Shown: positions 5,245-56,400, numbered from the stretch's first letter. The stretch is 64,000 bases of DNA from Lingula anatina (GCA_051362555.1 CM120640.1:63094788-63158787), one strand, 5' to 3'. Program-made: numbers and translations. The notes: generated by a model from the sequence alone, not told the origin.

Positions 5245-7392
5245 TGACTTTATCAAACCTCTTCTTAAGTTTCTTCAAATAAAAAAAGTTGTAAGAATAA
5301 TCAAAGACATCCCTGTTTGGTTTTCTAAAATCATAAGAATTGTCAAAAGATTATTTACTTGAAGAACAATCTGAAAGATAAGTAAGTATATGAATGTGCC
5401 ATCCACTGAATTTATACAAGTTCTATTTAACCACCAGTGTGACACATTCATTCACACTCCAAACACTATGATCCTATTGTACTTGTTATATATACATGGT
5501 GTGATGAACCATATCTTTCTTTCATGACACTGAACAATAGTGTATTTACAATATCTGGACATAGATATAAAAACTGTACATGAATCATTTACACCTCTCT
5601 TTCAAGTAAACAATTACTATTTTATCCACTCTGTGACAGTTTGAAACACACACATAATGGTGCAACCATAAAACCTAGGTTAATCTTACCAAAGTAGAGA
5701 CTTAACTTGTGTAGTATAGTTTATGAGAAATAGTTTAATGGGTTCCACGCCACAGTTTCATATGCTAAATACATTAGCTTAAGCTTGTTTCATCTCCACA
5801 CTTGAAGTACTGTATGTATGCCTGCCCTGCCTACCCGTATACAGCTGCCCTATTTACTATAAGTGTATATACTAAAGTGTTATTAAAACTAATGTTGACA
5901 GCTTTAAAGCAGCACCTGACTGGTAACAAAAAGGTTGGCATACTTATGTGTATCATTCTGAATGCAGTTAGAAATTGCAGGCACATGAAAAAAAAAATTC
6001 CACCGTGAATAACGATCTTAAACATTATTATTCTAATCTATAATGTGAAAATCTTGCAATGATTCAAGGTAAGCAATCCAGGTAAGGTTCAGTATAACTG
6101 TATACCTAGTTATTTATCTGTTTTGGCATCTGTAGCCTGTACATGTTAATATAAGGCACAAGGAGTATTAGTCTGCCCATGTCTGAGTACTTACATTGTA
6201 TTAGGCTTACCTGGCGACTTTTAAAATTTGCATGCACAATTCCTGATCAACAAAACAAAATGTACCAAAGTTTTAAAACTTATAAAATGCAAATTTTTAT
6301 GCCTGATATTTTTGTTTCAACTATTTTCATCTTTTTTTTTTATTTCTAAGAAAAGTCTTTATTTTTTGCCTTGAATTGGATTCATGCTTCTAACAATCAT
6401 AAGAATTTCAATCATGATCTCTGAGATACTGGCATTTATTCTAGAATGACATGCCTTTAATTAGTAAACCAGTGGACATGAGCTATTCAAGTTTATAACA
6501 TGATAATTTAGCCCCCCCCAAAAAAAAATTTTTTTTTTAAACTTATTCGTACTCTGGTGCACACCCACTTCCCAGCCTACACTTTTCCACTAGTATTTCA
6601 GCATGACACCTTGTGAAATCCCACACAGAAAAAAAAATTTAGAGGTAAAAGTTGTAAAAACAGGGCATCCATGAATATATGCTTGCATACTTAATTTAAA
6701 ATAAGGCTTAGCCCATGCAAGGAAAAAAAACACTGGCACATACTGTCAACATTGCAGGGAAAATATGCATCTGACAAAAATGACATTTATTATTAAAAGA
6801 ACTGAATAAAATCTCTTTGGCATGCTTAATTGGTAAGGAATTTTTTTCATGCAGCACAAGGACTTATGGGCGAATGTTTAGTTGCAAGAGAAGACTACAC
6901 TTATGTCTTTCGACTGGGGCAATACCAGGAGCTTGAAGGTATAAAGCCTGATGCTCTAGATAATTACCAAAATACATGTAGGAAGAGTTACACTTATGTT
7001 ATATATCATACATGTAATATATGGACACTTGCACACCTGAAAGACAGAACACACAGCGGCCTATATGACTTGTGACTTGTGTTGTCTGCCATTGATTTGC
7101 CCCAGAAGTCATTAGAAAACATCTGCGACCATGGCGTGTTTCCTGTGACATCTCCGTTGGATTTAATGGCGGATACATCGTCATGAACAAAATCACCTTG
7201 CAAACTGTTCACGTAGCAAAGTAAACAAGCAGCACTTGGAAGTACATATTTAAGCAGTTTTCCATTTTCTCTGTTAAGCAGTCTTTCCTGTTGACTATAC
7301 AGATAGTTGTTGTTGATGTTCCTTATTAGAGGTACGGAATTTTCTTCTTGTTGTCCTTCTGAACAGCCCACCCTCCTCTTTACCGCCATCAT
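874..7392 (-). CDS. TMTC1: TMTC1-like protein O-mannosyltransferase (TM/DUF1736 region plus start of TPR region), coding exons 1-10; gene continues beyond window start
   Basis: Exons on minus strand, all GT-AG and phase-consistent: 7392-7037, 5192-5012, 4509-4436, 4199-4026, 3005-2933, 2674-2571, 2262-2073, 1771-1650, 1322-1158, 987-874. TMTC motifs: [92 protein letters not shown] and the QMGSIPLV motif favour the TMTC1 paralogue. Confidence 0.93.
3540..3785 (+). pseudogene. Possible decayed gag fragment of a second DIRS-order retrotransposon in a TMTC1 intron
   Basis: Frame at 3618-3695 reads [21 protein letters not shown] between stops, followed out of frame by KNKHSKKAE. This resembles the FKxKGNxxQxxFNxxV ... 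RNKxIxxAD Gag motif I recall from invertebrate DIRS elements; needs a search. Confidence 0.4.
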
Positions 7393-7449
7393 TATTTTGA
7401 ACCCGTGCACTTGTGGTCAGCTCTGTGACGTCACATCGAACATGGCGGC
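7393..7449. promoter_or_regulatory. Ultra-compact bidirectional promoter between TMTC1 and the ankyrin gene
   Basis: ATGs at 7392/7389 (minus) and 7442 (plus). Palindrome TGTGACGTCACA at 7424-7435 contains a perfect CRE. GAACATGGCGGC at 7438-7449 matches TISU/YY1. Local CpG enrichment against a CpG-poor background. Confidence 0.75.
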
Positions 7450-20110: not shown

Positions 20111-29007
<8,897 letters not shown>

Positions 29008-29183
29008 CTGCAAAGACATGAATAAAATCAAATGACTGGAAATAATAAAGGTGCTAACTAATCAGTCGTATCCTGGTTGCTGTTGCTGGTGTATGTACTG
29101 GACAGAAAAACATTTCTCTGAATAAAAAGGGAAGTTATTAAATTCTACAAAGCGAACAAAAGGATATATAATTGCTAATTACT

Positions 29184-35700: not shown

Positions 35701-38447
35701 AGTGTTAAGCGATGATCAGAACACTGATCTTGTTCTACCTGTATGTGGTCAAAATACTTAAACCCAGTTACATGCATCTTCCACATTTTGTCTTAAATCA
35801 ATTCAACAATGCATTGTCACCTCTTTTACACATACATGTACAACAGTGAAAATTAAGCATGAAAGTATAATATTCAGTCCAAAAATTTTACCTACATGGT
35901 TTACACTCTGATGCATGGCAGATTAATAATGGAAAAGATAAAGCAGTCTCACACATCCTTTCTTTAAAAAAAAAAGTAATAAGAGAATACATTATTTAAT
36001 CAAGCTTACATTCTTGTTGATTTGTACCCGTAGTTTCAAGCACCTGCCACATTCCTCTGGCAGAAAAAAAATCACCAGTCCTGAGCAAAGCGGTACAGCA
36101 CAATACTTCCCCATGTTCTTAGGACCTACTATTATATACACACAACCACACTGAAGTCTTAAACCAAATAAGATGCCCAAATATAAGAGAGTAAATTTTA
36201 AAGTCTTGGCTAACTGCCTGTCTGTGGTGCCTTATTACACCCACACTGGAGTCAATAATTGGAGAAGACACCGACCCTCAAAAGAATTATACATGCTTAG
36301 GCTTATACCTGGGGCATTTTGTCTCTATCTGTTACAAATATGCAGCATATTTTTACTTTGTTCCACCTTTCTGTCTACACAGTGCAGTGCATTCCACTTT
36401 CATCTGCACCTTGGGGATGTGATAATAAATTGGTCTGTTTTCCACAGGATTGGCCTTTTTTATGATAAACCCGTCTTTTGGCAGGTTTTTTTTACAAGAT
36501 ACTGAAAGCATTGTATCATAAATTAACAGTTCTTTCATATTAATAAAAATAAGAATAAATGGCCTTTTATGTATTTTTGCATACTTTTTTGCATTTGAAG
36601 GTAAAGGTTTTTCCCCTCGACTCACTGTTGGTGACCAAGCATATACCATCATTGTATGTACTAATTGGAGGCCTATAAAGAATGATTTTTATTCTAATTT
36701 GAAATGAGAGTGAGGGATTTTTGCGATACAGTTCAATGCCATACAATTGAAACAGTCAGTTGTGAGTAAACTAAAAGCACTACTATAGTTTCCATTGCAA
36801 GACAGACCTATTCCTTTATCTTGGCATAAAAGGATATCATTTTTACGTTCTCATTATAAAGGCAAATATCAACATAATATTGAAAATGAAGATGATTAGT
36901 CTATGTGTATAAGCTCAGCATGAAATATGTTATAAATCTCTCTTAAAACATGCAATTTACTTATTTACACTTGTTATTTATCAGTAAAACATATTGACCA
37001 GCATTCACCACCATTCAGAAAACAGATAAACAAGTCGTACCTGGAAGCATTTTCATAAATGGCAATAAGATCACAATCAGTTACAAGCAGATCTTTTTCC
37101 CTTTCAATTACAACATTGTCAGCAATTGTTAACCAAAAAGTGAAAAGCAAACAATACAAGACTTTCATAAGACACTTTTCACACAGCTGTATCAGCTCAA
37201 ATCTACTGATATGGATGCGCTTGCACTAGAGGTCTTGTCTGGGTTCTAGTGTCTCACTGTCTAAAATATTTTATGCTATAATACATTTGTTTAGAATTTG
37301 TCCAGCAGTCCTAGTCTACATTCAATGATAGTCATAGTCATAGTGCAGGCCGACCAGAGATTCTACTGTGTTATTGTATTCCAACCAGTAGAACCAGTGA
37401 TGACATCATTTTTGCTTTCAGATATCTGTTGCTGTAATCACACCTTCAAAACATTGAAATCACACATAAAAAGTGCAACATATATACTTATTCAATCCTA
37501 GTGAGTGTTCTCTTTACATGTATATATGTGTAAAGGACTTCACAATTTGATTTCCAGACATATAATGTTCTGTATCTCAAAAACTATTTCCCACCCCTGA
37601 CACCCGATTTCAAATTTGCATTTTACATCTACGCAAATGGAATGCATTACCTATGTCATATGGAGCTTATCAATCATGAATCTCAATTTGTTTTGAAAGA
37701 AATAATTTGCTCACATTCTCTTTATCTTGTTTATTTGATAAAGATGACAACTAGTGGCTCATTAAACTTAAACTAATGCAATGTTTTCTTTATCTTCATT
37801 GTTTCTCCTTAAGAAAAATTCAAAGTAAATCAACATAATTCTCTGCACCCTGCATAATCAAAGGAGAACCAGGGTAAGAAAAAAGAATGTATCATTATAT
37901 AATGCCCTGCGTATCTTTCCTTCCCAGGTTAATGCCTTTTCTCCTTCATTTGGCATAGTCAAAACTGAATAATAAAAACCTTTCTGTCAACAAATCACAC
38001 ATGTCTACCTATACTATATCCTAGCTGGTACTACAAATCTAGACAGAAAAACTCAGGAGAAAAACGCTAATTAATTCTTCCAGGCAAACACACATACTGT
38101 GGACCATATAATTTCAACATTTCCTGGTAAATTGCCAAACAAAACCTTTTAACTGCTTCATGTCAAGTGTTCAGTTTATTCCAAACCATACTACCTTCCT
38201 GAGAGCAGCAATTCTGTTATAAACAATTATCCCAATGCTGACAAAGTGTGAAATATCCACGCTATACATATACTTTGAAGTAAAGGTAGTCTTAGGCCCT
38301 AATTTTCACTTTGTGCAGTAAACTTCTCTGTTTTGCACCATGCTAACTGGTCCTAACTTGTAGCTATGTTATAGTTTTTTTAAACTACTCTCTACAGGTT
38401 TTTTTCTCAACTGTTGTGGGCAGTGGGGCCTCTGCTTGAACTTTTAT

Positions 38448-38618
38448 TTAAAACCAACACACTTTCGGGCTTGCAGAGTTTATTTAAGAAAATAAATAAA
38501 CGACTAACTACATACGATTGAAATATATATAGTATAACAATTCGTTTAAAGAAAAAGGTTGACACAATGGAAAATAACTGTATATAAAAACCTACTGATG
38601 ATGAAACGACTATACCCC
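38448..38618 (-). repeat. Split direct repeat B2 (171 bp), element 3' end
   Basis: Copy of 38907-39077; AATAAA in element sense at 38484-38479. Confidence 0.95.
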
Positions 38619-38677
38619 CCATGCTGAGTTGCAAGTCTGGAATTTTACGTACACCCCCTTGAGGGTGGGTGGGTGGG

Positions 38678-38906
38678 AAATAAAAACGCAATAACTATGA
38701 AGCACCGGAGGAAGAGGGAGAGCGCCTGCTCCCTACACGCTTCTTCCTTGCTCGCTGCCAACGCTCTAATTGCCGATTTTAAAAGAGTCACGTGGCTGCT
38801 TTTCGGCTAACGGCCTTAAATTTGATAGGCTCCCACGACGGGGACCGCGCGCGGCGCGCCCTCCAGTGGCGGTTTTAAATAGCTTTCCGTTAAACGAAAA
38901 GAGTAC
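38678..38906 (-). repeat. Split direct repeat A2 (229 bp)
   Basis: Copy of 42809-43037; directly abuts B1. Confidence 0.95.
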
Positions 38907-39077
38907 TTAAAACCAACACACTTTCGGGCTTGCAGAGTTTATTTAAGAAAATAAATAAACGACTAACTACATACGATTGAAATATATATAGTATAACAAT
39001 TCGTTTAAAGAAAAAGGTTGACACAATGGAAAATAACTGTATATAAAAACCTACTGATGATGAAACGACTATACCCC
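38907..39077 (-). repeat. Split direct repeat B1 (171 bp)
   Basis: Identical by eye to 38448-38618 (offset 459); contains AATAAA in element sense (38943-38938). Confidence 0.95.
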
Positions 39078-39144
39078 AACCCAAATAAAGTAGTTGTAAA
39101 CTAAAGTCTGAAACAGTTTATTACGGGTAGTTACTTGGGACGGC

Positions 39145-40112
39145 CTAAGTTTGTTTGATGGCCTTGTGCATAGTGTCATATTTCATATCAGGGGTGGGCT
39201 TAATATATTCAAAAACAGCGTCACTTGACCAGTCACCCATTGATTTAACCATCCCTAGGGGGGTACCCACGGACAGCAGCCAGGTAGCCCCCCCTCTCCG
39301 CAAACTGTGGGTATTATAGACGGTAGGTGAAAGGCCTATTGTTCCCAGGGATTTTGTCAGTCTATGGCGGAAGCTCGCAGACGTGAGGTAGACCGTAGTA
39401 TCGTCCTTTAGGGTAGCGAAGAGGGGCGCCGATTCTGGCGTCTCGAGCGACAGTTTGAAAAAAGCTGTCAGTGCTGTAGTAGGACATAGTGCGTTCCCTG
39501 GCATGAAGGGAAGGGTGATGATGTGAGTTCTTTGGCCGAACTGGTTGGTTTTTGACTTAGTCACCCGTATGGTGCACCCTCTCTTAGTGAAAGTCACGTC
39601 ACGCCGCAGGATAGAATGACCCGGATCTGATTGCGATTTCGCCGTGAAGTTGCTGACTCTGAGCATGCCGAAAAACGCAGTTAAGCAAGCTGCCCACGTC
39701 TGCAGCTGGTCTAGGTCGCTTAAAATAAGGGTAGAACGCAGTTGGAGCAGGTGGAACGGGAGTATTGGTGATTTCTGTCGGCTGGGGTCCTGTTTGTGCC
39801 GTTTTATCCCGCCGATGGTAGCCTTAACATCCCACGAGGAGAGAGGGTTTGGGAACCCGAATTCCAAATGAATAATCCTAACTATGTTCAGGTACTGGCG
39901 AAGCGTAGATACGCCGCATGTGCGAGCCCGATACGCTGCATATCTGCAGAGATTTGCGGACGAGATAGGAACGGGCACACACTTTATCTCGGCGCAGAAT
40001 TTGGCGTAGGCGCGAAGGTGGGATTTGTAAGTGCTCTTAGTGGACGGTGCGAATAGCTGGGATCTCCAAAAGACTACCTCCTCATCTAGTTGCTGGCGCA
40101 GCCGCACGTGAT
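39145..40112 (-). CDS. Tyrosine recombinase (YR) of the retrotransposon
   Basis: Catalytic set R (FFGMLRVSN), K (SKTNQ), HSLRRGGAT, W (GDWSS), Y (FEYI). Overlaps the RT/RH stop. No ATG until residue 148 of the track ORF; start placed at the putative splice acceptor. Confidence 0.94.
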
Positions 40113-41737
40113 CTGAGTGAAGAAGAGAGAGAAAATAAAGATAAGTCAGTCATGTGATTCCTAAGATTGTAAAAAGGAGGTTTGGTATTGTGGTACATAT
40201 AAAAAACGGACACTAAGTTAATGAAGCGCGCACAAGAGTTCAGGTCGTGTATTCTTGATACGGCGTCGGCCATCCCATTGTCTTTTCCTGCGATATGAGC
40301 CGCCTGAATTGAAAAACAATGCTTCAGGGATAAATACGATAAGTCCTTAAGGAGGTCGTTACACATGTGATTGGGTGACGCTCCTTTGTTTAAGATGTGC
40401 ATGGCGACCTCGCTATCTGTGTGGACAATGACCCGGCATGAAGACCACAGGTGTCCCCATCTGTAAGCTGCAAGGACAATGGCTGCAAGTTCCTTTACGT
40501 TGATATGGCTGGCGCCAAGGCGGGGGGCATCCTGCTCCCAGTTCGTGTAATACCAGTCTCCATTGTGGAAGGCTCCACCTGCAAAAACACTGGAGTCTGT
40601 GAATACATGACATTCTGGACGGAAATCCCAGATTAGTCTGGTGTTGTTTCCTGCAATAAGCCATTTATTCCACCAAAGGAAGTCCCGGCGAAGAGAATCG
40701 AGTTTGCACTTGTGTGCCGCCTTTTTAAGAGTTGAAATCGCGTTGAAAATGGGGCGCACATGAGTTTTGCCCCAAGGGATAACATTTGAAGCCCACACGA
40801 GTTTCCCTGCGAGAGATTCAAGCTGGCGCCGCGACGCACGCTTCCGGGCCATGTATTGTTTTAAGCATGTAATCAGAGCCGACACCTTCTGCTTTTCCAG
40901 GGATAGCGTACCCGCGACAGTGTCTATGACGGTGCCCAGGAACGTAAGCCTTGTCGTAGGGTCGCACACTTTCTTCCAATTCACACTAAAGCCGAGCCGC
41001 CTCAGGAGATTAATCAAGGCGTTGTAAGCGTCCCGACACTCATTAAAGGTCTCTCCTATCACTAGAAAATCGTCGAGATATACTACCACATTAAAACCTC
41101 TTCTCTCCATCATTCGTTTGACGCTTTGTGAAATCCGATGAAAAATTTCAGGAGATTTGGTAGCACCGAATGGCAGTCTTGTATCCACTAGAACACGTGG
41201 CTCCCTATCGTCACTGAATTTCCATTTTAGCCCTGTGAGCCGGAACTGGGACGGGTGCAAGGGAACGGAGCGATAGGCTGCCTCGAGGTCCACTTTCGCT
41301 AGGTAATGACCGGGTTTGATCAGATTGAGGGCCGTCTGTAAAGTCTCACACTTAAAAGTGTTCTTAGTAGCATAATCATTGACAGCCTTACCTTCAGGAC
41401 GACTGTAATCGTGAATTAGGCGTATCTTGTCGTCGGACTTAGGCACTGCTGATAACGCGCTGATAATTAAGGGGTCTGCCTTGGGATATATGTAGCGACC
41501 TTCTCTTATCTCTTCTAGAATCTGCCTTTCCACCATGATTTTTGCACCTCCGCAGGTGGCAGATTTACTGTTAATAGTTTCGACTCTTGGTATGCTATCT
41601 AAATCAATGTCATCCACAATGCGAAAGCCCTCAGAGATTCCCCTTAAAATAAAAACATTGTCAACGTCTCCGCTTAGTTCCTCTCCCCACGCTCGAAGGT
41701 TTTCGCGGAGCGGAGAATCCCTCGCGCTTTGTAATGG
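40082..41737 (-). CDS. pol: Reverse transcriptase / RNase H ORF, in frame with gag behind a single TGA
   Basis: RT motifs RLIHD, AKVDLEAAY, RLPFG, VYLDDFL, FLG; RNase H motifs FTDSS, INVKELAA, HTDS, ADAVSR. The frame is open from 41737, 40 codons upstream of the GTG start used by the ORF track. Confidence 0.95.
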   Translation of the reverse strand, partial: PLQSARDSPLRENLRAWGEELSGDVDNVFILRGISEGFRIVDDIDLDSIPRVETINSKSATCGGAKIMVERQILEEIREGRYIYPKADPLIISALSAVPKSDDKIRLIHDYSRPEGKAVNDYATKNTFKCETLQTALNLIKPGHYLAKVDLEAAYRSVPLHPSQFRLTGLKWKFSDDREPRVLVDTRLPFGATKSPEIFHRISQSVKRMMERRGFNVVVYLDDFLVIGETFNECRDAYNALINLLRRLGFSVNWKKVCDPTTRLTFLGTVIDTVAGTLSLEKQKVSALITCLKQYMARKRASRRQLESLAGKLVWASNVIPWGKTHVRPIFNAISTLKKAAHKCKLDSLRRDFLWWNKWLIAGNNTRLIWDFRPECHVFTDSSVFAGGAFHNGDWYYTNWEQDAPRLGASHINVKELAAIVLAAYRWGHLWSSCRVIVHTDSEVAMHILNKGASPNHMCNDLLKDLSYLSLKHCFSIQAAHIAGKDNGMADAVSRIHDLNSCARFINLVSVFYMYHNTKPPFYNLRNHMTDLSLFSLSSSLRSRAAAPATR

Positions 41738-42802
41738 TCAGTGGGTTGTGTTTCTGCTTTCTTGCTGACTATGTGTGAATTCCCCGTGTGACGAGCTTTG
41801 GCATGTCAAACAAATGTGCGCAAAGCGGCAGTTTTGGAGAGAGCACCCTTGTCGACCATTGTACTTGAGACATATGGGGCGTCCTGACGATGGGTCTGTC
41901 CTGTTCGGCTTTCGTCTGTGTCCCAGGGAAGGAGGCGATGAGCGATCCTGGACTGGCTTAAGTAAGAGTTGCATAAGGAAAGGGCTGTCGCTTCCCCAGG
42001 GAAAACCCATGGAGTTTTGTGCCCTCCTGTACTCCGCATCGTACCGCAATACCGACGACCACGTAAACGATTGACCCATACACGCTACCTTCGTGATGTA
42101 GCCGACATATTGCATGGCTGTCTTCATGTCCGCGCCGTCTTGCTCCACCATTTCCTTCAGAATCTTCATTGATGCCTCGGTGAATTGCAGGGGGGTGATT
42201 TTCTCCAGTGGGATTTTCCGTTCCGTGAGAGATAGTTCTATGTTGCCTACTCGTAGTGGTACGTCGCTCTCTATCTTGCCTTTTTCGTAGGCCTGTGAAA
42301 ACATCACGTAGTCGCGGATCTCACGGAGCTTTGCAGTTTGCTTTTGTGGGATTGAGATCGAAAAGGGGTCAAAAATTTTACCTAGTGGCTCACCTGTTGT
42401 AGGTGTTTTGCTGTCCTGTTTCTCAACTCCTAGTAGCTGGCACAGCTTGGCATAATCTAGTTCGGAGTCAATAGGGTCTGGCTCCGTTTGTTTCCTCTCC
42501 CTCAGAACTTCCCTAGATGTAGATGGCTGATTTCCCTCACTTTCTGTGGCTCCTGTTGAATCACCCTCCCCCGCACCCGGACCCTGGTTGATCCGTGGCT
42601 GCGGAGGCTGCAGTGACTCCACTGCATCCTGCAGGAGTAGCAGCTGGGCCAAGGAAAGGGATCGTCCGAAATGTTTCTGAATAAGTGATTCAGAGAGCTT
42701 TTTGCAGCTCTTCAGAGATACAAAACCCGCGTCCTTTAAGATGTCTACCGTCTCTGGGGATAGCTCATTTTCCTGGACCCAAAGCTCGAAATTCTCTGCC
42801 AT
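41738..42802 (-). CDS. gag: Gag-like ORF1 of YR retrotransposon (354 aa)
   Basis: ATG 6 nt downstream of A1. W.SV.RYD.EYR motif and C-terminal Cys/His finger (CLKYN..GC..NCRFAHICLTC...H) typical of DIRS-order Gag. The N-terminal ~65 aa resemble a SAM fold. Confidence 0.88.
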   Translation of the reverse strand: MAENFELWVQENELSPETVDILKDAGFVSLKSCKKLSESLIQKHFGRSLSLAQLLLLQDAVESLQPPQPRINQGPGAGEGDSTGATESEGNQPSTSREVLRERKQTEPDPIDSELDYAKLCQLLGVEKQDSKTPTTGEPLGKIFDPFSISIPQKQTAKLREIRDYVMFSQAYEKGKIESDVPLRVGNIELSLTERKIPLEKITPLQFTEASMKILKEMVEQDGADMKTAMQYVGYITKVACMGQSFTWSSVLRYDAEYRRAQNSMGFPWGSDSPFLMQLLLKPVQDRSSPPSLGHRRKPNRTDPSSGRPICLKYNGRQGCSLQNCRFAHICLTCQSSSHGEFTHSQQESRNTTH

Positions 42803-42808
42803 AGTTTA

Positions 42809-43037
42809 AAATAAAAACGCAATAACTATGAAGCACCGGAGGAAGAGGGAGAGCGCCTGCTCCCTACACGCTTCTTCCTTGCTCGCTGCCAACGCTCTAA
42901 TTGCCGATTTTAAAAGAGTCACGTGGCTGCTTTTCGGCTAACGGCCTTAAATTTGATAGGCTCCCACGACGGGGACCGCGCGCGGCGCGCCCTCCAGTGG
43001 CGGTTTTAAATAGCTTTCCGTTAAACGAAAAGAGTAC
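42809..43037 (-). repeat. Split direct repeat A1 (229 bp)
   Basis: Identical by eye to 38678-38906 (offset 4131). Confidence 0.95.
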
Positions 43038-44694
43038 GTAATAGCTAGGCAATTAAGTATTCAATCCCTCAAAATGGTGTGAAACAGAAAAGTTTGCCAC
43101 ATGATGTGAAAAAGGTCTTAAATTTAGATTGGCCTTTTTATCTTATAGGTAAGAACAGAATAATAATGAAAATTGTAATATTGAAAACCAAAGCTTTAAT
43201 TAAGTCCCCAAACTTAAACCATTTGCTAATTTCTCATTTGTTAGTCAGTTTCTATATATCACTTTTAACTGAAAAAAAAAAAAAAAAAAAAGAAAAGTTC
43301 TGATGTACATGTTTAGGAAAGCTGTGCACTTGTGTTGCAAGTCACGACTTTTGACAACATTGCCCTTTTTCAACGAAATTATTCAGTGCTCCTTCAAAAT
43401 AATTAAATCAACTTGTCTAAATAGAAAGCACATGGGTCAAGAGATTACCTGACCACCTATGTATTAGTTTCCCCCCCCCCCACCCCCCCACCCAAATACC
43501 TCCGTAAAAATCTCCACACCCACCTATATAGGGTCCATTTCTAGACTAGATGCTGGGAAACCATGCAAAACACGTCTTTGATCTTCGTCTATGCCCACTG
43601 GCCCATTGCAGGCCAGTCAGAGAGTCTCGCCAATTGTGAATCAAATGACGTCACTTGTGTAGCAGTTCTACTTTTCCTCTAGGATGGTTGTCTATTTTGA
43701 TTTCATAATCTAGTGACCTCTGTCCAACTAGCTGAGGCAAAATGTGCGCTTGGCATGCAGTCGATTGCAATCCAGTTATTTAGGTACCATGCCCTGCATT
43801 TACTGCCTCTAGGTCATTCACTGGCTCAATCATTAGCAATACTGATTCAACAAATCTGCGTGTAACTATGCTAAATTTTTCATCTTAAATCTTTAAGGCA
43901 TAGATGTTTAGGATTCTAAACAAACCCTTCAAACTTTTTTAATCAGATATACAGCACAATTTTTCTGTGAACTTTGTTTTTTTTCTTAATTTTTAAAAAC
44001 TTTCAATCCCATATTTTCTAGTACAAGCAAACATGACTTGGACATCCAAAGTGTGATCATGCACAACATGCAAGCATGCAGTAGCTTACCTGCAAACCCA
44101 TATTGCATCCCTAACTTAAACAAACTTCCTTTTTTTCAGTAGCTTTCTACACTTTCTCTCAACTCCATACCAGAGCTTGCATTTGTGAAACATGTGCCCT
44201 TTCACCTACCTCACTGCGGCTTCGCAGCCTCTGGAACCTGTGAACCTTGTGCTTAAAAGACTGGTAATGTTCTTTAAGTGTAGAGTTGCGATCTCCTTGT
44301 CCCCCACTGGCTGTTGAGTTCTGCAGCATTTCACCCTAATGCCTGTGACCTATATCAATCAATTTCAGCACACTGTTGTACATTCCCATTAATTAACTCT
44401 CCTGCTAACTATCTCCTTCTCATTAATTTTTTCCTTTCTACCCTTCTTTTTTTACAAGCATCATGCTCCATCAATTTTCTCCTTGTTAACTTCTGGTGAT
44501 GTTAAAAAGATAATTCAACTTCTACAAAAATACCCTCTTGACATTTTTTTTTTTTTGCCTTTTCTGCTGTTGAACAGCTTTCAGTATTCCTTGCTGCCTT
44601 AATTTGATGAAAAAAACTTAAATAAAACAGGAGCAGTGAACACCAAAAATTCAGGTCACTCTGAAAACAAAATGCAGAGAAAACAGTGACTTAC

Positions 44695-51000: not shown

Positions 51001-52614
51001 CAATCTTTGTTAAATCTGCTGCTGTTGTAGACTCAATAATCTTAGTCATAAATGGTCATGAATAAAAATATGCTCTTCTACCACACATTTTACTAGTCAA
51101 AAACTCAAAATGTAGGTACAAATTGAAATTCAGTACTTACAGTGCTCTTATAAAAGACATAGATTAATGATGGCCATTTAAGACACACACACATACACAC
51201 ACCTGATATTTAAACAAAATCACGGAGTATGGAGCGAATTAAACAGGACTAAGTCCAGAATTCTTGATGTTTTTTCAATTAAAATACCTACATTACATTA
51301 AACATAATGTCAATATAGATGCACACAGTAACATGTCTATATTAATTTTTCCTGTGATGTTCCTAATCATGTTCCTAAGATAGCAATCTACATTAGTATC
51401 CATAGTTAACTCTTTAAAAAAAAGTAAAATTCTTGATGTCATAAAATTTCCTTTATAAACATAAATAGAATATTTTATGTAGCAAAAGTCTAGCCCAAAG
51501 TAAGATCACTGGTCGATCAATCATGCCTGTTTCATGACGCATACATTTCAGGGTTCTATTCAATATCTAATTTAGAAAGCGACATCTTATGAAGATGGGA
51601 ACAAAATTAATTTCTACCAGTATCCAACATTAGCAATGTCTCTTTTCAGTCCAAAAAATAAAATTGCATTTAATATATATACAGCTTGGTAAATGGACAA
51701 ATAAGTATACAGAAAAATATAACTTTTTTTTTCACTTTGTCTTGTCTATTGGAGGTCCCATTAGACATGAAAACCAGAATATAATAACAAAAGTCTCTTT
51801 TTGGACAAAAATTCAAAATGAGATTCAAATTGGCATGTCTTGAATTCTTATCACCCACTGTGATTAATGGAAATAAGAATCTTTTGCAGTTATTTGGACT
51901 ATCACAAAAAATTTCTTAAAACATAAATTAACCAGTCCTTTCATTAGTAATCAACTGATCATTGAATCTGATAGGTCAATAAATAATTGTTTTTTTCCAT
52001 TTCTGCAACTTTCTTTCTTTCTCAAAGCTACAGAAAATATTTAAAACTACTTGTCATCATAAAAAAACAATCATATATTGTCTACTCAAAGTTATTGGCC
52101 CTTAGCAGCTATGAGTATCATTTCATAGTAAATAAAGTTTAGTGCTTTGATTAAATCAATTTTTGATCCTCTTCCAACTTTAACATTTCATCTTCATCAC
52201 AGTTCATTTCTGGGTTATTGAATTACAAATCCAATATCAGAATACACAAATTGCCCACCGAATCATGTAATGTCAATTGCCTAGGGACTTATGAAAAATC
52301 ATTAAAATAATTAATTATTAACTTCTGACCAAATTTAACCCGCATAATTTGTGTATTATGAACTATACTTCATTGGAACAGAGTATAACTGAGATGTTAC
52401 ACAGGTGGCTACATTTTTGATATCTTTGACTTTGGCTTTCGCAAGCATGTACAAATAATATGATCATCATGCACTCAACTACATTTCACATTAGTTATTT
52501 TATCACAGACTTACATAAAATTCAACTATGTGAGATATAAATACTGGAACTAACTAAGGTCTTTCTGCATTTACATGTTTCAAACTGTTAAGCAGCCACA
52601 ACATTGAAACTTAC

Positions 52615-53484
52615 TCTGTAACCAACTGCAACTTTACCATCATGATCTTGCAACTTGCAGTGCAATCCTTCATGATGTTTTCTTGAACCAGAGCGAGATG
52701 GGCGATATTTTAGCTCAGAGGTGGAAGGAGTGTTGGGGAAGTATTGCACCCCTTTCCTGGTGTACGATGGTGGGCTACGACACGCAGGGTGATCCCATTT
52801 ATCCACCTTATTTGCCGACTGGTAATGGGAATGATGAGTGTGATGCTGGCATTGGTGGTGGTGGTGGTGGTGATGCTGTTTTTGTTCACTGTGTGCTCCC
52901 CTCTCATCTTTTCTGCCCAGGGGACTGGACTCTGCTGCTTTTGTAGCTCCCTCTGCCTTCACTTTGACTTTTGGTGTTTTTTTCTTCCGTAAACCCATCC
53001 ATAAGGTGGAAGTAGCTGACTGTGCTTCAGAAGAATCCACTAAAGTTTGACATTGTAAATCAACCTCCACAGATTTTTTAGATTTAGATGGTCTTTCACT
53101 AGATTTAGATATCCTTTTTAACAGAGAGATCCCTTTCGTTCTTTTCCGTTCTTTAGATTCCTCCACGCACAGATCTGTATGTCTGTGTTCAGGTTCTGGC
53201 TGTTCATCTGTGTGTTTACTGGTACAACAAGAGTACTGATTTGCCATTCTATCGTCTTTATTCACCATATATGTCTTCCTTTTTTCTACAGTCTTACCTT
53301 GTGCAGAGTCACCAGCTTCTGCAGTTGCGTAGGTTTTTCGCTGTTTATGTTCACTTCCACCATTGTCATAATGAGAATCTGTCAATAAAGGCTCAGAGTT
53401 TTCAATATTCTGATATGCTGTCTGTCTCCTTTTTTCATATTTCCCCCTTTTCCTGGACTCTATCAGTGCCTTCCATTTCTTCAT
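52615..53484 (-). CDS. Probable alternative first coding exon of PDE3 (290 codons, basic/His-rich, low complexity)
   Basis: 870-nt stop-free frame in AT-rich DNA, with an in-frame TGA two codons upstream of the ATG. Ends at AGA|GTAAGT donor in phase 0, matching the phase-0 acceptor at 29007. Same strand as PDE3. The join is inferred. Confidence 0.65.
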
Positions 53485-56400
53485 ATTTGTTCAATAGATC
53501 TAAGTGCGAATTACAAATAATTTACAAGTCTAACATCTTCCTACTCCCACATGACTGCAGCCAATCATCTGTGCGTCAAACCAACAGAATTCTGAGGGTT
53601 AATTTCATATATGAATACACACTAGATCATACAACATACAAAACCAACCATCTTGAGTGCCCTTGCACATGTATGTGCTTACATCATTAGGCAAACAATG
53701 CTGTATCATTTACTAAAGATAATACAGTTGCTGAAGGATACAGTCTATTATCTTTGGATTTGCACCTTTCTTAAAGAGAAAATTGATCCCCGAGCTACCT
53801 GGAAAATCAACATTGGTGGTGACAGAGTGATTTCCGCCAACAAAGAGCAGCAACCGAAAGAAGCCATCCTGCTGTCTCCTGATTATTGACAAGCATCCTT
53901 AGTAGAACTAGTTTTTGCCATTTGCCTTGTCCAAAGATATTGCATGATCTTTTCTTTTCCCATACAAGTTCTGGCAGTGAAAAAAGGGGCTGCAGAGTAG
54001 GTCAGGTCAATAGTTTGCCATTTTCTCTGCAACAGCTAAGGTGAGACGCAAGTTCTCGATCATCAGAGATTAGTTTCAAAGCATCCTCTAATCCAATCAA
54101 ATGTAGCTTGAATAGTCAGCTGAGGTAATTGCAAATTCAGCTCCCTTTGATTTTTTTCCCTTCAACTCTCCTATTCTCATCAAAGCAATGAAGGGTACGA
54201 AGAAAAACAGAGCCTGCAAGTCAAGAAACAACAACAACTGGTGTCCATGAATATTTCAGTCCCCTGATTTTACAGTATTGTCACCAAAACTCAGGGTCAA
54301 CAATCTTTAAAAATATGTATAGCTTGAATGTATTGCTCCAAAGGACAAGACCTTGTGCTGCTGCTGCTACTATATGCTACAGCATTCAGCCATTGCAGCG
54401 CGGAATCAGATTCACCAGTAGATAGCACTGCCACATTCCTGGAACTCAATCCTCTGCTGAGCTGACACAGATAATGTTGTCTGAAAACTGACAAATCTCA
54501 AGACTACATTTTGGCGAAGCCAAATCTCGTGGCCGTAATTTGGTTACTACTAATCAGAGTTTTTCCTGATTTAGATAATAACTAATAAGTGGATTTACAA
54601 AAATGGGCCTATTGACCTTTCATCCATTGGTGTAAATTTATAAGAACAAGAAAGGTCCAATGCTTAGCTTTTCATCAAGGTTAACCTATTGATCAGGGTT
54701 AAAACTGCATTGAGATTGGTTACTATCATTTGATACACAGCAAACCACACGGGTAATTACCTGCAGAGGAGATAGGTATTAAAATGTCACTGGGAATAGG
54801 GAATGGACGTTAAATACCACAGCTCTCCACATGTATGTCTTATCAAGTAAGGAAGCATTTCAAATCTTTTATTCATTCACATATATTATGCTCTAGAGAC
54901 AGTTACTGTGAAAGGCCATTTTCCACTTTTTTTTTTCAGACAAAAAGTCTAAACACAAAACATCTTATACAAAGGAATAATCCTTTTCCTGAAGTGGGTT
55001 ATAATGGCCTACGAATAAGAAACCTTTTCCAGTATTGCCTAGCACAACTAATCTTATTGCTTGTTATCATTACAATAAGAACTAATAAGTGCTTGTGCCT
55101 ACCTGAACAGAATTAATAAACTAAATGTTCTAATCCGCCACAGAGAAATGAAGAAGGGGAGAGGGTGTTGAAAAATGAAGTCCTCACAGGTATTTTGATT
55201 TGTCATCTGCATATCAAACAATTTTTGATCATTTATAGGTGTAATTAAGTTTTTGTGTCATACGTGGACACATTTGTTTCAATTATGCAACATTTTGTTA
55301 AGAGACACACAATTAATTTTCTAAAACTCCAAATTTCCATCTCTTTTTCTAGGCATTGTCAAGATTAATTCAACTGTTATTTTTCTTAGCTCTACTTTGA
55401 TATGACTGCCCACATTCAATCCAATTATAGGAAAAAGAAAGCTTCCTGTTGTGCTGTTTTTAAGATTCTTGTGACACATGAAGAAGTGAAGAGATAATCA
55501 TGAGCCATTAGGCTTACCACAGACACAAATGTGACACATATCAAAATTTAAGTAAAAAGGCACCAGCAGGCCATACAACTTCATTTATCCCCCCTCAAAA
55601 ATTAACAATGATAAAATAAAAAATAAAATAACTAAATAAAACCACACACACACAACAAACTTTTTTTATTTAATCTCCAATTACAGTGTCTATAAGGATT
55701 TTCCTTTAATTTAAGTCTACAGTTCTCTATCATCTAAGAGGCAACATTTATCTTCCTTAATGGCAGAACTTGTGAAAAAATCCCAATAATGAAATAAAGT
55801 GAGTGATTGTTTCATCAAACATTCCAAGTTCTTTTATGCTTGGCTTGCATTATTCAAACCTAGTGGGAATAGGAACTCATCAATAGCACGTCATGGTTAG
55901 CCTTTTCCATTGGGCAAGCTATGGACATAACATATTTGTAACACATGCAATGCAACTTTGAAATTCAATACTGTGACCTAGTTTCAACATTGCAAAAAGA
56001 AAAAAAAAAGAAAGAAAAGGAAATTAGGGCATGGGATTATAAAACTGACACTGTCAGTATCCTGCTATGGGTAAAGGAATCACCACAAATGAGCATTTTA
56101 GTACACAGCCATATTTAAAACTGCTACTTCAAAAAATAAAAAAATAAATAAATCTTGATCAATTGGTGCTAACTAATGGAGGTTACAAAACAGGAAACCT
56201 GCATGGTGGAATTCCCATTATTCTATCTTGTTCTCATGAATAATTTCAATATGGTTTGGCAAAAAAGAAATAATAATCCAGCAAGGTCTGACTTTCACTG
56301 CATTGCAATTATTGTGCCTGTGCTAACTTAATTGTTTTTTGGCTGCATTTTCAGTTAGGTTTTGATGGCTTCCAATAAAGTGCATGCTATCTCAGCATAA

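Follow-up and report, generated by a model that had tools for sequence, protein, structure and literature searches.

The 64,000-nucleotide stretch of Lingula anatina DNA analyzed here (GCA_051362555.1 CM120640.1:63094788-63158787; the window) carries on its minus strand a Ngaro-type tyrosine recombinase (YR) retrotransposon. Comparison with related elements suggests that its reverse transcriptase (RT) is made as a 906-residue Gag-RT-RNase H protein by programmed read-through of a UGA-C stop at the end of gag, a reading to which we assign a probability of roughly 0.78. The gag open reading frame (ORF) runs from the ATG at 42802 to ACC CAC TGA (41740-41738). Past the TGA, the same frame stays open (CCA TTA CAA AGC...) for 551 codons until a stop at 40084-40082, giving 906 codons of gag and RT-RNase H with one internal TGA. 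The first 40 codons beyond the stop (41737-41618) translate as PLQSARDSPLRENLRAWGEELSGDVDNVFILRGISEGFRI, and the first in-frame ATG appears only at 41536, codon 68. An earlier interpretation of the window, the sequence-only reading, had reported the shared frame across a single TGA-C, the peptide and the late ATG, and all of these are confirmed, coordinates included. Read-through is supported because the TGA is kept among copies, the one-frame layout recurs among relatives, sister elements keep their stop, and the junctions of other relatives bear frameshift motifs.

Gag-RT junctions were compared among the best 80 of 110 relatives confirmed from a metagenome scan. In twelve of the 80, the end of gag or the beginning of RT could not be detected (including L068, which has a TAA upstream of RT and was left unclassed), and three were set aside: L056, a stop-free fusion, and L058 and L075, which have long inserts. 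Of the 65 left, 43 look intact, and these fall into three exclusive junction classes, with RT in frame with gag in 15, at -1 in 21 and at +1 in 7. In the -1 class, A AAA AAC lies in the gag frame no more than 90 nt from the gag stop in 20/21 elements, and L005 has A AAA AAG; in the +1 class, TTT CG lies in the gag frame in 7/7. Each of the two motifs is absent from the other classes and from the last 90 nt of gag in the Lingula element. L056 (1122-2817), a sister to the -1 element L034, is a natural gag-RT fusion of 878 codons without a stop. Together with this fusion, the three exclusive junction signals indicate that RT is produced fused to Gag in this family. The sequence-only reading had contrasted the one-frame arrangement with the overlapping layout of DIRS elements; this is right for the Lingula element and does not stand as a fixed contrast, since both layouts occur within the family.

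Further features of these junctions were recorded. A AAA AAC just ahead of the gag stop, often with TAG directly after it, was seen at the gag ends of the -1 elements L001, L008, L011-L014, L018-L020, L022-L024, L029, L032-L034, L038, L039 and L044. The +1 elements form one clade, with a PPRFR peptide encoded with TTT CGT at their gag ends (L003, L015, L016, L037, L040, L042, L043 and L069) in what looks like a PA-X-type arrangement; UUU_CGU is the +1 site of influenza PA-X (PMC5009743). In the sisters L058 (1500-3136) and L075 (2300-3095), the RT frame is open for 543 and 260 codons upstream of the conserved RT block, respectively.

The in-frame stops differ in context from other stops of the family. 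Among the 15, there are six TGA-C, six TAG-G, two TGA-T, one TGA-G and no TAA; across all 65 classed relatives, 17 of 20 in-frame stops are TGA-C or TAG-G. The search of related families suggested by the sequence-only reading thus returned a recurring single in-frame stop (15/43), with one of these two contexts in 12. TGA-C or TAG-G is found at 12/15 in-frame stops versus 4/28 gag stops of the frameshift classes (P = 4e-5), 10/33 stops at the end of RT (P = 0.002) and 13/44 stops at the end of YR (P = 0.0009). The two contexts fit published read-through classes, in which UGA followed by CUA or CGG defines type II and UAG-G defines type III (PMC3542737). The codons that follow the stop in the relatives include CTA, CCA, CAG, CGC, CGT and CGA. 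An alternative genetic code was set aside, since both TAG and TGA occur at the junction in the relatives and ORF2 itself ends in TGA.

Alternatively, the stop might be recoded at the RNA level, with A-to-I editing yielding a Trp codon, or might be read as selenocysteine. A single edit suffices for TGA or TAG and two are needed for TAA, which fits the lack of TAA among the 15 in-frame stops. However, ADAR favors a 5′ G neighbor least, selenocysteine cannot account for the TAG class, and the bias at the +4 base is better explained by leaky release-factor recognition. We regard editing or selenocysteine as highly improbable.

Phylogenetic analysis of 54 sequences whose RT is open over 200 codons or more placed the in-frame elements in many lineages; the trees are unrooted and do not give the direction of change. 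The in-frame label needs 10 changes on the RT tree, and well-supported branches alone force at least 6 in the quick tree and at least 7 in the careful one. The in-frame state formed one group in 0/200 bootstrap trees. Besides the Lingula element there are nine in-frame lineages, eight with TGA-C or TAG-G and a ninth with TGA and a varying +4 base, so the context bias persists at the lineage level (8/9; P ~4e-4 against the rates at RT-end or YR-end stops). The stop codon was the same in 12/12 sister pairs (8 of them disjoint), 10 of which show synonymous change at 48 to 69% of conserved RT codons.

Retention of the TGA among copies was judged from contigs of sequencing runs, with contig depth not taken as copy number. 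The stretch is present in nine runs, and contigs were compared from four DNA runs belonging to three studies; one of these runs may be the source sample. In 4/4 DNA runs, contigs spanning the stop (38907-43037, 40674-42906, 41318-41947 and 41334-42691) have the TGA unchanged. A private nonsense mutation, which would appear as a sense codon in other copies, had been named by the sequence-only reading as the outcome that would refute it, and no such codon was seen at the stop. The 13 coding variants listed from DNA contigs and RNA reads introduce no stops. RNA reads matching the element number 58, 52, 14 and 12 per run and are mostly oriented as for sense transcripts; no splice joint was recorded among them, but their depth at the junction, approximately 1 to 3, is too thin for joints or editing and gives no evidence either way. 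In one RNA run, a 1-nt insertion in YR is present in 4/6 reads, and part of the expressed copies may thus be defective.

The 67 codons between the gag stop and codon 68 carry part of the RT itself. In a 48-row alignment of the element with 47 of 120 listed RT homologues (675 were found), G37, F38 and N56 are present in 47/47 relatives and W17, L21, D24, D26 and G33 in 42 to 46, which agrees with the earlier recognition of a typical RT N-terminal block ahead of the ATG. Met68 is present in 0/47. An AlphaFold model of ORF2 is confident overall (predicted template modeling score, 0.89) and in residues 11 to 60 (predicted local distance difference test, 94 to 98). The best structural match of the model is the RT of murine leukemia virus (MLV, also MuLV), with Z 20.9 and a root mean square deviation (rmsd) of 7.9 over 396 aligned residues; an N-terminal MLV RT fragment gives Z 19.4 and an rmsd of 3.2 over 237. 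Alignments to the MLV and HIV-1 RTs start at model residue 6 to 8, the ranges being end points only. In the model, the block before the ATG folds as the RT N-terminus. Given its invariant residues and the confident model, a start at Met68 would cut the RT fold.

These results bear on the possibility that RT is translated alone, by reinitiation or by internal or non-AUG initiation past the gag stop, for example at the ATG at 41536. The context of this ATG is strong (A at -3, G at +4), and two in-frame relatives (L026 and L059) have a Met ahead of the conserved block. However, initiation at Met68 would discard invariant positions together with two helices from the RT N-terminus, and among the 15 intact in-frame relatives, 13 have their first Met beyond the FIL.G anchor. 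The 17 ATGs within gag and two out-of-frame ATGs ahead of Met68 argue against scanning to Met68, and reinitiation is inefficient downstream of a 354-codon ORF. Separate initiation also leaves the stop-context bias and the frameshift motifs unexplained. We therefore consider independent translation of RT very unlikely.

Two signals that the sequence-only reading had proposed around the stop fared less well. Its comparison of CCATTA with the CARYYA motif (type I) was rejected: CCA TTA is off at two positions, and 0/20 in-frame relatives have CARYYA, so the likeness is not common to the relatives. Its short stem can be located, with arms at 41727-41719 (+11) and 41699-41691 and 8/9 possible pairs, and is present on paper only; folding of the region is at chance level against shuffles (z 0.47 over 58 nt and 0.04 over 101 nt, and from -0.7 to +0.5 across five windows against dinucleotide shuffles), and this stem was also rejected. 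A possible extended stem with an 11-bp core, 41722-41712 paired with 41643-41633, is predicted in longer windows, with z -0.8 to -1.4 versus dinucleotide shuffles and z -2.33 versus synonymous shuffles. It resembles the 3′ stems with long loops at alphavirus read-through sites (PMC3159437); the stem of type II sites starts approximately 8 nt past the stop. The earlier proposal of a read-through Gag-RT-RNase H thus gains from the layout, the kept TGA, its recurrence and the exclusive signals in relatives, and loses the short stem and the CARYYA likeness.

Several observations weigh against read-through. The UGA-CCA of the element differs from the CUA or CGG of classic type II sites, with only the +4 C fitting, and the stop context is TGA-T or TGA-G in three in-frame relatives. 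Grouping of TGA-C with TAG-G was made after the data had been seen, though following published classes; TGA-C alone (6/15) is not significantly enriched relative to RT-end stops (7/33; P = 0.29) or YR-end stops (7/44; P = 0.07) and is significant only against the gag stops of the frameshift classes (0/28). A 3′ structure signal like that of the extended stem was found in 0/15 in-frame relatives, by a low-power test that barely detects the structures expected in the -1 class (4/21 versus 8/126 controls). Contigs drop rare variants, and a further 32 substitution and 6 indel rows lie beyond those listed. The listed coding variants among copies, six synonymous and seven non-synonymous, are a weak sign of selection. 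Lastly, the element sits in a clade with 100/100 support with four -1 elements, its nearest relatives, and there is no close in-frame relative of it among the 54 tree sequences.

Because of these -1 neighbors, a broken-frameshift origin stays alive at low odds. Here, an indel in a former -1 element would have placed RT behind the gag stop, leaving an element that lacks a useful RT product and is propagated in trans. The junctions of the element and its four -1 relatives align within one base or a few codons, few distinct copies of the element were seen, and the RT of DIRS-1 is able to act in trans (PMC7192593). Against such decay, each of the three ORFs is open, the repeats are identical, and contigs at least 85% alike have no different junction among the rows listed. 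The last 268 nt of gag contain no slippery heptamer besides two far upstream, and no in-frame relative (0/15) has one in the last 90 nt. The in-frame state with kept stops also recurs across many lineages. We consider this history unlikely.

Splicing appears to serve a different product. A donor is predicted in gag, after 136 codons, and an acceptor in frame with YR, both in phase 1 (Table 1); the latter scores 9.3. YR lacks an early Met, the first lying 149 codons beyond the predicted acceptor. Among 42 relatives, the highest-scoring acceptor around the start of YR is in phase 1 in 38. Similarly, G|GTRAG is in phase 1 at 29/33 sites in gag ORFs versus 3/10 in RT, and 19/28 complete gags carry such a site. 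These conserved signals make it likely that YR is translated from a spliced RNA in which 136 codons of gag run into YR and RT is left out. No Gag-YR fusion was found in the best 120 of 214 YR matches; four have N-terminal extensions, none of them gag-like. Poulter and Butler, as quoted in a newt paper (PMC13003380), suggested that YR is made by frameshifting, and the conserved phase 1 signals, which point to splicing, conflict with that proposal.

A spliced or subgenomic RNA lacking the stop might likewise be the source of RT, given the strong gag donor of the element, splice signals conserved family-wide and a passable phase 1 acceptor before the RT block in 3/15 in-frame relatives. However, the best phase 1 acceptor before the RT block in the element scores -9.6, versus 9.3 for that of YR, and the acceptor threshold before RT is passed by 5/43 relatives, approximately the 11% of control windows. 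The conserved acceptor lies past RT, with none comparable before it; splicing therefore likely serves YR and removes RT, and a spliced or subgenomic source of RT is very improbable.

Under the proposed read-through, most ribosomes would stop at the UGA and release free Gag, and a small fraction would incorporate an amino acid there and continue into Gag-RT-RNase H, so that the leaky UGA would set a high Gag-to-RT ratio, as in gammaretroviruses. The three ORFs would then yield Gag by plain termination, Gag-RT-RNase H via UGA-C and Gag-YR via splicing, and the family would swap between read-through, -1 and +1 frameshifting at the gag-RT junction. More broadly, we consider it moderately probable that animal Ngaro-type elements follow one plan from a single promoter, in which Gag is made directly, RT through a repeatedly exchanged recoding cassette (UGA-C/UAG-G read-through, A AAA AAC -1 shift, UUU CG +1 shift or fusion) and YR by splicing, the Lingula element having switched from -1 frameshifting to read-through. 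No fused Gag-RT protein across the junction was found among 958 candidates, in a search that is insensitive at such divergence. Two Oculina gene models (P0078 and P0095) have long RT matches with gag and skip the gag end or the RT start; they may be prediction artefacts. No relatives were found in the viral contigs searched.

Comparable logic is known from other systems. The gag-UAG-pol of the gammaretrovirus MuLV (type III) uses the same one-frame leaky stop, and six relatives share its TAG-G; unlike MuLV, the Lingula element has UGA-C, no protease, no DDE integrase and no demonstrated pseudoknot. Type II sites of alphaviruses and tobraviruses share UGA and the following C, along with a possible counterpart of their structure in the extended stem 7 nt downstream; in the element, however, the next codon is CCA rather than CUA or CGG, and the stem is without comparative support. 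The A AAA AAC and TTT CG of the relatives resemble the -1 heptamers and +1 shifts at gag-pol junctions in retrotransposons with long terminal repeats (LTRs), with the difference that all three modes and a fusion occur here inside one YR retrotransposon family. In Xenopus DIRS-53_XT, all ORFs are described as overlapping in the available text (bioRxiv 2021.08.05.455354), in contrast to the in-frame gag and RT across a stop found here.

The available part of a recoding review (Atkins 2016, PMC5009743) has no mention of DIRS or Ngaro. Neither gag-RT recoding nor gag-YR splicing in DIRS-order elements was found in the literature searched, which excluded Poulter and Butler 2015, the 2004-2005 papers of Goodwin and Poulter, Repbase notes and supplements; the Goodwin and Poulter papers and Repbase notes may mention gag-RT frameshifts. 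Accounts of Xenopus, Dictyostelium, kinetoplastid, nematode, fungal, newt, Chlamydomonas and Cafeteria elements, in the portions available, describe neither process. The analysis addresses how DIRS-order elements make an RT and a recombinase that lack starts and, if correct, yields an expression scheme, open to testing, for a widespread group of retrotransposons. Dozens of junctions with read-through, -1 and +1 signals replacing each other at a homologous site would help in asking how such signals originate and are exchanged. A practical point is that the RT ORFs in such elements are annotated with arbitrary starts, and elements with the one-frame layout can be mistaken for dead ones.

The element is young, intact and recently mobile, with identical repeats, an empty site and three open ORFs (Table 1). 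DNA contigs of runs X5, X7 and X8 pass directly from 38447 to 43038 and omit the 4590 nt in between, and different flanking DNA is present at the element termini in other contigs. The site is thus polymorphic for the insertion, and the family has moved recently. DNA contigs of X5 and X7 have loose ends close to the start of YR (40064 and 40110), perhaps from truncated copies. Reads or contigs of runs X5 and X17 represent a related, more diverged family, approximately 90% alike in the A repeat (38831-38906 / 42966).

Assignment to the Ngaro type rests on structure, as the RT trees hold unnamed loci and no named Ngaro or PAT references, and structure-only classification of such elements can mislead (PMC4157794). 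The order gag, RT/RNase H, YR is present, with gag named by position and motif only; the C-terminus of ORF1 has a Cys/His zinc-finger-like motif (CLKYNGRQGC...C...H.C) common to the relatives. The element has the A1-[ORFs]-B1A2B2 split direct repeats that define the Ngaro layout (PMC8547959), with the internal repeats downstream of YR; a 59-nt spacer (38619-38677) separates A2 from B2, making the order at the 3′ end B1-A2-spacer-B2. The only repeats of size in the element are direct, with no long inverted pair, unlike a DIRS1-like layout of inverted terminal repeats and an internal complementary region. A Pfam search of the ORFs gave no methyltransferase match, and approximately 55 residues are left after the RNase H fold, versus approximately 284 for the Xenopus methyltransferase (bioRxiv 2021.08.05.455354); ORF2 thus has no room for the domain expected of a PAT-like element. 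Lack of a methyltransferase sets Ngaro apart from PAT and DIRS1 (PMC4157794; bioRxiv 2021.08.05.455354). The Ngaro elements Xenopus DIRS-53_XT and that of Cafeteria burkhardae, as far as they are described in the available text, share the split repeats, the ORF order, the lack of a methyltransferase and the overlap of the YR start with the RT end. Unlike the Ngaros compared, the Lingula element has no SGNH hydrolase ORF.

Table 1. Features of the Lingula element, in window coordinates
Feature	Position	Strand	Basis
Whole Ngaro-type YR retrotransposon, 4590 bp	38448..43037	-	Empty-site joint and end check
Split direct repeat A1, 229 bp	42809..43037	-	0 differences versus A2
Repeat A2, 229 bp	38678..38906	-	229/229 same as A1
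Repeat B1, 171 bp	38907..39077	-	0 differences versus B2
Repeat B2, 171 bp	38448..38618	-	171/171 same as B1
ORF1, gag-like, 354 codons plus TGA	41738..42802	-	Position and motif common to relatives; no Pfam match
ORF2 (RT-RNase H), stop-to-stop length 551 codons	40082..41737	-	RVT_1 E 2.6e-17, RT_RNaseH E 0.005
ORF3 (tyrosine recombinase), stop-to-stop length 334 codons	39145..40149	-	Phage_integrase E 2e-5, Phage_int_SAM_4 E 0.001
Predicted read-through site, in-frame TGA and +4 C	41737..41740	-	Sequence, contigs, relatives
RT N-terminus ahead of first in-frame ATG, 67 codons	41537..41737	-	Invariant residues, model, structural alignment
Possible extended stem, starting 7 nt past the stop; weak, found post hoc	41624..41730	-	Minimum free energy and centroid folds
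Predicted splice donor CAG|GTGAG in gag, intron start 42393, phase 1, after 136 codons	42389..42396	-	Sequence
Predicted splice acceptor, polypyrimidine tract and CAG, intron end 40113, phase 1, in frame with YR	40113..40140	-	Sequence

Elsewhere in the window, minus-strand host exons lie at 7006-7416 and 27347-29061, which look TMTC-like and PDE3-like, respectively. A long low-complexity exon is located at 52588-53490.

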